Below are positions 26,965-28,366 of a DNA stretch of 32,000 nt, piece by piece. Position 1 is the stretch's first letter; the number at the start of each line of letters is the position of its first letter. Source of the DNA: Candidatus Altimarinota bacterium (GTDB taxonomy: Bacteria > Patescibacteriota > Gracilibacteria > UBA1369); assembly GCA_041659405.1 (NCBI GenBank), contig JBAZYK010000011.1, positions 30,001 through 62,000 on the forward strand, in the 5' to 3' direction. The notes below the pieces were generated by a model. That model was given only the letters and a program-made list of their open reading frames with translations. It made no database searches and was not told where the DNA came from. A program made the position numbers and the translations under genes.

Positions 26965-27510
26965 ATGAAAAAAATTTTATTACCACTGCTACTCATTGTT
27001 TTCATTCAAACGGGTTGTGGTAACGGCGGAATTAAAGAAGAAGCCCACACCCAACGACCGGGTGAGTTTAAAAATGGGCAACTGTATGCCACTTTTAAGA
27101 TAGATAATTTCCAGATGAACTATCCCAATTGGCCGAATTTTGATACAAGCAAAGCGGCCGACGCGGACAAATACAAGCTTGCAGTAGCCAATGAAGGCTG
27201 CAGTTTTATTATTAAAGTCTCACCGGTTCCCTCAAACATTTCCTTTAAAGATTATGCCGAGAATGCGCTTCAAGAAGGGACAAAACTATATCCAACAAAG
27301 ATTTTGATCAAAGACGTTAAGGACACTTTTGCCCATTTTGAAGGCGAAATATCAATGAGCAACGTTATCATGAAAAGTGTTACCTACGCCTATTTCACCG
27401 GCAAAAAAGAATCTGTCAGTGTCGGTTTGGTTGCCCGAAAAGACCAATTTGACCAAGGCTGCACGCCAATAATGGATGAAGCGATCAGCAGCGTTAAAGT
27501 GGACTTCTAA
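26965..27510 (+). CDS. putative lipoprotein (181 aa)
   Basis: Signal peptide with lipobox LLLIVFIQTGCGNG. No other motif. Confidence 0.6.
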   Translation: MKKILLPLLLIVFIQTGCGNGGIKEEAHTQRPGEFKNGQLYATFKIDNFQMNYPNWPNFDTSKAADADKYKLAVANEGCSFIIKVSPVPSNISFKDYAENALQEGTKLYPTKILIKDVKDTFAHFEGEISMSNVIMKSVTYAYFTGKKESVSVGLVARKDQFDQGCTPIMDEAISSVKVDF

Positions 27511-28366
27511 TTCTGGCCAAAGCCACACTTGTAAGTCTGGTATAAATTTGAGTTGTGCGGATACTGCTGTGCCCCAAAAGCTCCTGCAAATAACGAATAT
27601 CCACACCATTTTCCAGCAAATGAGTCGCAAAACTGTGCCGCAACGCATGAAATCCGGCAATTTTATTGATCCCCGCTTTTTGCATAGCCTGCAAAAAAAC
27701 TTTCTGAGCCGTTCGCGAATGCAACTTCCCTCCCCTCTGGCTTTCAAAAACAAAATCGCCCAAACTCTTACCAAAAATAAACGCCTTCAATTCATCTTTT
27801 ATTTTACCCGGCATCACCGAAAGACGATCCTTGCCACCTTTTCCTTTTCGCACACAAACAAGCACACGCTCAAAATCCAAATCAGCCACCTTCAAATTAA
27901 CAACCTCACTCACCCGCAAACCAGATCCATAAGCCAAAGAAAGCATTAACCGATGTTTCTGATTTTTAAGAGCTGCCAGTAGTGCCAAAATCTCTTCCTT
28001 CAAGAAAACAACAGGCAAACGCCGAGATCTTTTCGCAAACTTTAAAGGAATTTGTGTTTGATTCTTCAGCACCTCCCGATAAAAAAATTTAATCGAATTC
28101 AAATAAAGATTCACCGTTTGCGGAGCAAAGCCCTTATCGTGCTTCCACAAAAGAAAAGTCCGAATTTTCTCGACATCCAAAATTTCAATATTAGAGCCCG
28201 CTTCGCAAGCAGTAGCAATAGTCATATCCTGCGGCCCCAAAGCTCTGGAATCATTTTTCAAAAATGCCAAAAACACACTCAAACATGACCGATAAGCCTT
28301 AGCCGTCCGCTGACTATGCCCACGAAGCTTCACTTCCTCCACCAAACGATCCAAATAATATTTCAT
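27494..28366 (-). CDS. tyrosine recombinase, integron-integrase-like but lacking the IntI-specific insertion
   Basis: 290 aa. The catalytic set lies in ..GLRVSE.. (R), GKGGKDR (K), [12 protein letters not shown] (H-x-x-R), LLGHSS (H) and IYTRL (Y). It shares RRLPVV, KVADLDF, GKGxKDR and the C-terminal (I/V)RSPL with IntI1 as I recall that sequence. The spacing from KDR to LRH is 60 aa here, against roughly 100 aa in IntI1. Confidence 0.85.
   Translation of the reverse strand: [290 protein letters not shown]

Follow-up and report, generated by a model that had tools for sequence, protein, structure and literature searches.

A probable integron-like cassette platform with an I2-less integrase on a Patescibacteria chromosome

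The recombinase locus and its cassette array

In this study we analyse a stretch of 32,000 nucleotides (nt) from Candidatus Altimarinota bacterium (Patescibacteriota, Gracilibacteria; assembly GCA_041659405.1, contig JBAZYK010000011.1, positions 30,001 to 62,000), hereafter termed the window, which harbours a gene for a tyrosine recombinase of 290 amino acids (aa), an adjacent attI-like recombination site and an array of cassettes with attC-like sites (Table 1). The 290-aa protein resembles the integron integrases (IntI) along its full length but is devoid of I2, the insertion by which integron integrases are defined and searched for (PMC9668308). We propose that the protein probably serves an integron-like cassette platform as its site-specific recombinase, the platform residing on a chromosome of the Patescibacteria, also termed the candidate phyla radiation (CPR). 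Judged from its sequence, the locus comprises the structural parts that define an integron, namely an attI site adjoining the integrase gene and a cassette array of the attC type.

Table 1. Features of the recombinase locus (window coordinates; a caret marks the crossover; ORF, open reading frame)
Feature	Position	Strand	Remarks
Tyrosine recombinase gene, 290 aa	27494-28366	-	ORF; IntI-like/Xer-like simple recombinase without I2 insertion
Promoter-like site TTGACC-18-TACAAT	28455-28484	-	Putative; consensus scan, 10/12 matches; ~90 nt upstream of recombinase start
tRNA-like domain, 69 nt	28509-28577	-	In leader, between attI and promoter-like site
attI-like site	28656-28724		Crossover 28717^28718; gene strand: GTTGCACAA^C TAGTGTCTTGCGGTGC...GGTGGGTTTTGGGAAGTGATG
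Cassette 1	28718-28995	+	278 nt, no ORF; ends ..GCGAAC^GTT
attC-like site of cassette 1	28816-29002	-	187 nt; L box imperfect (one indel, one mismatch)
Cassette 2	28996-29480	+	485 nt; 101-aa ORF at 29045-29350
attC-like site of cassette 2	29373-29487	-	Canonical example; structural detector, (4,1) spacer signature
Cassette 3	29481-31804	+	2324 nt; ORFs 29628-30593 (321 aa) and 30607-31593 (328 aa); GC 31-36%
attC-like site of cassette 3	31714-31811	-	L box GCGCATATCTG/CAGATATACGC; R'' = GCT, not GTT
Cassette 1, second copy	31805-32000	+	100% identical to 28718-28913; cut by window end

The architecture of the array and its exact junctions are observed directly: four ..AAC^GTT.. junctions are read from the sequence at 28717^28718, 28995^28996, 29480^29481 and 31804^31805. 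At the first of these, which forms the boundary of attI, a perfect 196-nt direct repeat starts exactly at position 28718; its two copies (28718-28913 and 31805-32000) flank a low-GC stretch and correspond to cassette 1, which is duplicated at 100% identity with one copy adjoining attI. The same boundary emerges from a comparison with the three closest relatives of the locus (L085-L087, 65% identity), where the gene-side sequence of attI is conserved, the cassette-side box is different in every locus, and sequence conservation ends exactly at AA^C. The attI of the window is a divergent subtype common to these three relatives.

Integron cassettes circularise, and the R'' box of an attC site pairs with the R' box that is re-formed at the G^TT junction; a cassette start complementary to the cassette's own R'' box is the classical signature of integron cassettes. 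In the window this complementarity is a direct observation. It amounts to 7/7 positions for cassette 1 (start GTTGTGC, R'' GCACAAC at 28816-28822), 7/7 for cassette 2 (GTTAGCT, AGCTAAC at 29373-29379) and 6/7 for cassette 3 (GTTATAT, ATATAGC at 31714-31720). Cassette 1 is an ORF-less mini-cassette, present in at least two copies, of which the recombination site takes up 187 of 278 nt, and all cassette ORFs of the window lie on the strand opposite the recombinase gene. None of these ORFs yielded a match in Pfam or PADLOC, and no phage or transfer genes were found in the window cassettes with these two resources.

The attC-like site of cassette 2 illustrates the design of the sites best. It is ordered as R', GTCC, an 11-bp L box, a variable stem, T and R'', and the predicted fold of its gene strand (-30.6 kcal/mol, z -4.8) reproduces a model consisting of R box, spacer, L box and variable stem. 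The strand of the cassette 1 site also folds well overall (z -3.5), and the L box of the cassette 3 site is matched by the covariance model R1 described below (31723-31799 on the minus strand, 15.8 bits, E 0.05). A scan with Rfam, among whose families attC is not represented, returned no attC-type match and, in the vicinity, only noise and the sub-threshold tRNA-like domain described below.

A second assembly provides an alternative view of the array. The ENA contig L001 (k141_464940; assembly ERZ27249449) is 100% identical to positions 17494-28998 of the window (11.5 kb), and past 28998 it continues into a different, 410-nt cassette (11503-11912 in reverse-complement coordinates) with a 79-aa ORF, a start, GTTGTTGG, that is complementary in 8/8 positions to its own R'' box, CCAACAAC, and a copy of cassette 1 on both sides. 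The 410-nt cassette is suggestive of strain-level variation in content or else of an assembly path through the repeated cassette 1; either way, it is an extra cassette bounded by the same junctions. As proof of population variation it was not kept, since the repeats of cassette 1 could mislead an assembler.

The recombinase and its relation to IntI and Xer proteins

The original prediction, made from the DNA alone, listed several segments that the 290-aa protein was thought to share with class 1 IntI, and every one of them is found in it: SRRLPVV at residue 114, HRL at 138, DLDF at 162, GKGGKDR at 175, the LRH...GHS-type segment at 242 and IRSPL, which forms the C-terminus (residues 286-290). 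The protein matches the Pfam families Phage_integrase (5.5e-41) and SAM_4. It is predicted to adopt the tyrosine recombinase fold and carries the corresponding R-K-H-R-H-Y residues (R151, K176, H240, R243, H266 and Y275), which are invariant among 41 family members. The motif SPL or SPF at the C-terminus is likewise invariant in the 41 aligned members.

The interval between the KDR and LRH motifs spans 60 aa in the window protein, compared to 102 aa in IntI1 and 103 aa in VchIntIA, and profile matches skip the region; therefore, the IntI-specific I2 insertion is absent, as had been anticipated. None of the 41 aligned homologues, which measure about 270 aa, has an I2-type insertion. An AlphaFold model calculated with the 41 homologues (predicted local distance difference test score, pLDDT, 85) agrees with this, as the segment 197-216 is predicted to form a short strand-turn, with no additional helix where I2 would sit. 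A separate, lineage-specific insertion of ~20 aa is located in the N-terminal SAM-like domain (residues 40-62; window 27612-27674), where the model has a pLDDT below 50; this part of the protein is variable across the family.

For comparisons with known recombinases we used an IntI1 reference sequence that is 100% identical to the annotated intI1 product of thousands of plasmids. In BLASTP the window protein aligns with IntI1 from residue 5 to the RSPL end (139 bits, E 1e-43, 32% identity), with large gaps at query positions 196-213. E. coli XerC and XerD score 110 and 98 bits, respectively, and their alignments end before the SPL tail. Among sequences of the Protein Data Bank (PDB), XerA of P. 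abyssi reaches 142 bits and VchIntIA, matched in two stretches, 139 bits; the score of E. coli XerD is 82 bits. In a Foldseek search of the PDB, VchIntIA is the best match of the predicted structure (E 8e-15, template modelling score 0.68), followed by two XerA structures. Accordingly, the notion that the protein is closer to IntI than to XerC/D stands with regard to the E. coli proteins and the fold, but archaeal XerA is equally similar.

The profile scores convey the same picture. The best match in NCBIfam is XerA_Arch (210.6 bits), which narrowly misses its curated cut-off of 220, followed by the integron integrase profile TIGR02249 (197.2, cut-off 265), XerC (190.1, cut-off 335), XerD (169.3, cut-off 330) and NF011946 (137.4, cut-off 435). 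All cut-offs are missed, and the ranking is identical in all 41 family members. With HMMER, TIGR02249 and VchIntIA each match in two stretches that omit the region of the insertion. The intI_Cterm profile of IntegronFinder describes this very insertion and would be expected to miss the protein. Because the additional domain is missing and the scores remain below the curated cut-offs, the protein is not filed as IntI.

The phylogenetic position of the family was assessed by a neighbour-joining (NJ) tree of 21 sequences and 210 common columns, from which the insertion columns had been removed. The references comprised IntI1 and three of its relatives, VchIntIA, two XerA proteins, and E. coli XerC and XerD; the IntI lineages included are few, and a search seeded with IntI1 gave only relatives at 75% identity or more. 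In this small tree the family and the IntI proteins are each monophyletic with 100% bootstrap, and a node with 100% bootstrap unites the two, leaving the Xer proteins outside. The family is placed beside the IntI clade, not inside it, and is probably a sister lineage of IntI as far as these sequences go.

A subgroup of simple recombinases termed “Cand” has been described as Xer-related recombinases of Candidate phyla (Smyshlyaev et al. 2021, PMC8138268), and the same work mentions Cand in a passage stating that class-specific simple recombinases may compensate for Xer. The window protein probably belongs to this subgroup, which like the homologues collected here, nearly all of them from Patescibacteria, is Xer-related and found in Candidate phyla. 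The two descriptions differ in that PMC8138268 reports neither recombination sites nor cassettes.

Cassette-type sites beside related recombinase genes

To place the locus in a wider context, relatives were collected from one genome per species, yielding 80 loci at 41-59% identity with flanks of up to 10 kb on each side. Almost all of these loci are from Patescibacteria, including Peregrinibacteria, Gracilibacteria, Kerfeldbacteria and Saccharibacteria. Some records bear other titles: L010, L011, L014, L021 and others, which possess the CPR-type recombinase together with attI, are labelled “uncultured Gammaproteobacteria” or “Pseudomonadales”, and L042 and L057 Margulisbacteria. Either these titles are unreliable, or the family extends past the Patescibacteria.

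Contigs end within 2 kb upstream of the recombinase gene in 49/80 loci, compared to 10/80 downstream (p 3e-7), a bias that a repeat-rich or variable array would produce. Arrays of sites that share the design of those in the window and are spaced 0.45-2.5 kb apart are seen in L037 and L045, both of which have long flanks on the upstream side. To search all flanks, we used a structural detector that requires AAC, 3-5 nt, a 10-nt arm, its reverse-complement arm (at most one mismatch), 0-3 nt and GTT. Such sites occur at 0.286 per kb on the gene strand upstream of the gene, versus 0.075, 0.051 and 0.051 per kb in three control compartments, and the dominant (4,1) spacer signature accounts for 49 sites in 27 loci, versus 1, 0 and 2 sites in the controls. 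This link in orientation and position between sites and recombinase family is observed directly, and the 49 strict sites in 27 loci indicate that cassette arrays do accompany the dif-like sites of many homologues.

On the gene strand, the consensus of the sites reads nnnYAAC GTTT GCGTATATGCG A(A/T) GTT ... AAC CGCATATACGC T GTTRnnn. In more general terms, nnnYAA^C and GTTY precede an L' arm of 11 nt, and a variable region separates the inner GTT and AAC. The corresponding cassettes are 0.3-2.5 kb long, promoter-poor and each terminated by an imperfect palindrome of 50-190 nt. Covariation in the L box is apparent from an ungapped alignment of 42 sites, where compensatory changes are observed in 9/11 pairs, and L-box cells are paired in 96% of cases versus 30-48% with the partner slid. 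Since the arm sequences vary, selection seems to act on pairing and not on a sequence motif. In the inner GTT/AAC helix, on which the detector did not select, the pairs 25-45 and 26-44 are formed in 93% and 88% of the sites, respectively, and the third is paired in only 60%. Gene-strand G.T wobbles number 30 and A.C mismatches 10, an excess that weakly points to the gene strand as the folding strand; the sites are interrelated, so that the p value is only a guide.

Neighbouring sites are connected by a chain rule. The four variable bases of R'' are complementary (4/4) to the next R' in 13/21 neighbouring pairs, whereas random pairing yields a mean of 1.5 and a maximum of 7 in 2000 trials. The R' and R'' boxes of one and the same site match in only 2/48 cases. 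Furthermore, ORFs in the arrays favour the strand opposite the recombinase gene by 3.2:1, and the GC content is lower upstream than downstream of the gene.

A covariance model of the sites (R1) was built from the 42 sites with their centres trimmed, and it cannot span long variable loops. R1 was dropped for census counts, given that it missed the site of cassette 2, a member of its own training set, and found only the L box of the cassette 3 site.

The three 65%-identical relatives also differ from the window in their gene neighbourhood: downstream of the recombinase gene they carry rpsG, rpsL and rpoC, and in the window a 181-aa ORF, tRNA-Ser and rpmB are found instead (26400-27510). Thus, the platform occupies different chromosomal neighbourhoods.

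A conserved attI core upstream of the recombinase genes

In 17 loci a box that is complementary in 7/7 positions to the nearest R'' is located 60-280 nt upstream of the recombinase gene and is followed by conserved sequence. These 17 loci served to train a weight matrix for attI, and another 49 loci were held out. The matrix detected an attI core 45-300 nt upstream of the gene (mostly less than 170 nt) in 40/49 held-out loci, 39 of which score above every control; altogether, the core is present in 57/66 loci (17 training and 40 held-out).

The core reads ATTTC(A/G)nnYAA^C TCGTT(T/A)(C/T) TAT(G/A)CGAAGTGTTT. Its two arms form an imperfect inverted repeat, separated by a spacer of ~7 nt, which suggests that attI is a dif-like double-stranded core. 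The left arm (..GCRTAA) is similar to the arms of dif sites, and the right arm to the L' arm of the cassette sites.

As a specificity control, 80 metagenome loci were examined, the recombinases of which contain the motifs LRHSFATHL or YGxGLRxSE. The attI core is found in all 3 loci that reach 49% identity or more, and it is missing from the more than 70 loci whose identity is 44% at most. At 39-40% identity, the three loci L091, L092 and L095 feature strict cassette sites upstream on the gene strand without the attI core; the system may extend past the sampled family with a different attI. Taken together, the recombinase adjoins an attI-like core and an array of attC-like palindromes in the window and in most relatives. 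The original prediction had envisaged a recombinase of this type paired with non-canonical folded sites; sites of the folded type are indeed present, but their design is near that of canonical attC and not strongly non-canonical.

Proposed mechanism and alternative explanations

In the layout underlying the proposed mechanism, the recombinase gene is transcribed away from the adjacent attI, and the cassettes lie beyond attI on the other strand. The gene strand (“bottom” strand) of a cassette site would fold into a hairpin that mimics the attI core and is composed of the R box, a partly unpaired spacer and the L box with a bulge of 2 nt. The recombinase would exchange one strand at AA^C, either with attI, leading to insertion, or with another cassette site, leading to excision, and replication would resolve the product. 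The duplicated cassette 1 near attI might represent the expected trace of an excised cassette that was reinserted at attI. The I2 helix is considered to let IntI use folded attC sites (PMC7790495); in its place, the 4x1 internal loop and the invariant A within the bulge of 2 nt could serve as landmarks. The protein's role as catalyst, a single-stranded substrate and the choice of strand we infer by analogy with integrons, where binding and cleavage affect the bottom strand of attC alone and replication resolves the insertion (PMC3458562).

Several observations weigh against an integron-like platform with folded substrates. The absence of I2 in itself argues for a different mode of recognition or for double-stranded recombination. 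The attI of the window is divergent, with a weight matrix score of only 2.2. The minimum-energy prediction fits the site model in only one of the three window sites, namely that of cassette 2: at cassette 1, where the L box is imperfect, the minimum-energy fold takes the inner helix and not L'/L'', and the cassette 3 site folds no better than shuffled sequences (z -0.7) and prefers an alternative helix. Ten of the covarying pairs had been selected by the detector, and hence the covariation is partly built in by construction. The tree is an NJ tree of 21 sequences, in which the Xer side is made up only of E. coli XerC/D and two XerA proteins, and the alternative cassette of the ENA contig could stem from an assembly path running through the repeated copies of cassette 1.

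An unlikely alternative holds that the protein is primarily a chromosomal Xer dimer resolvase, that the adjoining core is its dif site, and that the cassettes are elements piling up there by exploiting Xer in the manner of integrative mobile elements exploiting Xer (IMEX) that use folded single-stranded DNA. This explanation can coexist with an integron-like platform; in its exclusive form, the platform would not be a dedicated integron. It is close to the scenario of Escudero et al., in which integrons originated from a single-stranded IMEX acting on a Xer-like ancestor (eLife 2020, PMC7790495). Support comes from XerA, the top match in NCBIfam (210.6 bits, cut-off 220) and among PDB sequences (142 bits), from the Xer-related “Cand” recombinases, which are mentioned alongside possible compensators of Xer (PMC8138268), and from the dyad-symmetric arms with a ~7-nt spacer 45-300 nt from the gene in nearly all loci. 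A core next to the gene has parallels, too, as xerS immediately adjoins difSL, and some archaea possess a xerA/dif module (PMC5357621). Yet, the family groups with IntI in the small tree and not with XerA, XerC or XerD; the 65%-identical relatives reside in an rpsG-rpsL-rpoC neighbourhood and not beside tRNA-Ser and rpmB; and the cassette design is of the integron type, without the replication or transfer genes of phage-like IMEX. Moreover, a change in the sign of the GC skew was not seen at the locus (19 loci with both flanks; those with clear skew include two complete chromosomes), which is a weak test, as the upstream 10 kb consist mostly of cassettes.

The remaining alternatives fit the position- and strand-specific statistics poorly. 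It is very improbable that the arrays are ordinary attC arrays, i.e., clusters of attC sites lacking integron-integrases (CALINs), with a canonical IntI from another locus acting on them in trans and no relation to the neighbouring recombinase. Although CALINs are common and outnumber complete integrons (PMC9668308), and the sites come near to canonical attC with their AAC and GTT R boxes and the G^TT junction, the attI core 45-300 nt upstream in 57/66 loci and the nearly exclusive occurrence of strict sites upstream on the gene strand tie both to the recombinase gene; neither feature is found beside more distant relatives, loci of IntI-like length included. Hardly plausible at all is an integrase of a phage, a genomic island or an integrative and conjugative element (ICE) with the 196-nt repeat as attL/attR, or a set of palindromes that are inert repeats of the repetitive extragenic palindromic (REP) or terminator type. 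A long perfect direct repeat around a 3-kb low-GC segment and a tRNA-like fragment nearby would be in keeping with an island, but Pfam and PADLOC revealed no phage or transfer genes among the cassette ORFs, dozens of genomes share the layout but differ in their cassettes, and conservation ends exactly at AA^C. The 196-nt repeat as attL/attR of one island was rejected, because there are several junctions instead of two and the chain rule connects neighbouring sites.

Comparison with known systems and implications

The locus has much in common with integrons such as those of IntI1 and VchIntIA. In both, attI lies next to the recombinase gene, which is transcribed in the direction leading away from it, and the cassettes share one orientation on the opposite strand; every cassette is terminated by an imperfect palindrome of the order R''-L''...L'-R' with AAC and GTT triplets and a G^TT junction, and the cassette start is complementary to its own R''. 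Cassettes without ORFs, duplicated cassettes and orphan ORFs are found in integrons as well, and at the protein level the alignment with IntI1 extends from end to end, including the RSPL tail, with VchIntIA as the best fold match in the PDB. In contrast to integrons, the platform features a recombinase without I2, which is sister to IntI in the small tree and scores below the integron cut-offs (197 vs 265 and 137 vs 435), as well as an L box that is partly conserved in sequence (..TA.. core) with a 4x1 internal loop and a 2-nt A(A/T) bulge, where canonical attC has an unpaired spacer and separated extrahelical bases. Furthermore, the attI of the platform is a dif-like dyad, and its hosts are Patescibacteria.

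With the single-recombinase Xer modules XerA/dif, XerS/difSL and XerH/difH, the locus shares a simple recombinase of ~270-290 aa without I2 and a dyad core adjoining the gene, and XerA is the top match in NCBIfam and among PDB sequences. It differs from these modules by a cassette array with folded-type sites on the core; the SPL tail and the position of the family in the tree lean towards IntI, and no skew switch is seen at the locus, the flank of which consists mostly of cassettes. Folded single-stranded IMEX such as the CTX phage at dif1 resemble the platform in that a hairpin of one strand mimics a double-stranded core and a single strand exchange suffices. Unlike CTX-type IMEX, the inserts of the platform are cassettes of one or two genes without phage functions, arrayed with uniform sites beside the recombinase gene.

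Considering these similarities and differences, the element is most aptly regarded as an integron variant whose integrase is devoid of I2 and comes from the probable sister lineage of IntI. There are about equal grounds for accepting and for doubting the broader proposal that such elements form an undescribed and widespread class of Patescibacteria integrons, the IntI-sister integrase of which never gained I2 and the attI of which is still a dif-like core. No description of CPR/Patescibacteria recombinases linked to attC arrays was found in open-access papers and bioRxiv. In the work on archaeal integrons, the IntI-specific domain was a requirement, and only six IntI were reported among 75 genomes with attC arrays (PMC9668308); so small a number hints that similar I2-less enzymes may have been overlooked elsewhere.

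The gain of I2 has been seen as the step that opened the way from double-stranded to folded single-stranded recombination, and a “lack of intermediates” has been noted (PMC7790495). If the proposal is correct, the capture of cassettes through folded sites predates I2 or does without it, and the elements described here would represent the living intermediate that has been missing between Xer/dif and integrons, with an enzyme that may still resolve chromosome dimers. They would also provide natural material to test the need for I2 and render the origin of integrons experimentally approachable. In practical terms, current tools would miss a whole class of cassette platforms, and many “CALINs” may have a neighbouring integrase. 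For CPR bacteria with their reduced genomes, the platforms would represent a major route by which genes are gained and lost, and the recurrent break point of assemblies beside the recombinase gene would be explained.

The leader of the recombinase gene and neighbouring features

Between attI and the recombinase gene lies a leader with a putative promoter-like site, whose TTGACC element also occurs in the relative L086, and a tRNA-like domain (Table 1). The latter combines an acceptor stem of 7 bp with a T arm (GGGGUUCAAUUCCCC) and terminates in CCA. Its similarity to the transfer-messenger RNA (tmRNA) model of Rfam is confined to the two ends of that model and amounts to 33.1 bits, which falls short of the gathering score of 47; ARAGORN does not call the domain, and the 65%-identical relatives L085-L087 lack it.

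Further away from the recombinase gene, the window contains a 6S RNA gene (25396-25551 on the minus strand; Rfam, 50 bits, above the gathering score), beside which two pairs of direct repeats of 32-42 nt are located in the region 25121-25294 at spacings of 73 and 106 nt. Just past the MscL gene, the minus strand encodes a 193-aa ORF6N-domain protein (23924-24505; 1.6e-34) with a weak match to phage Rha-like proteins.

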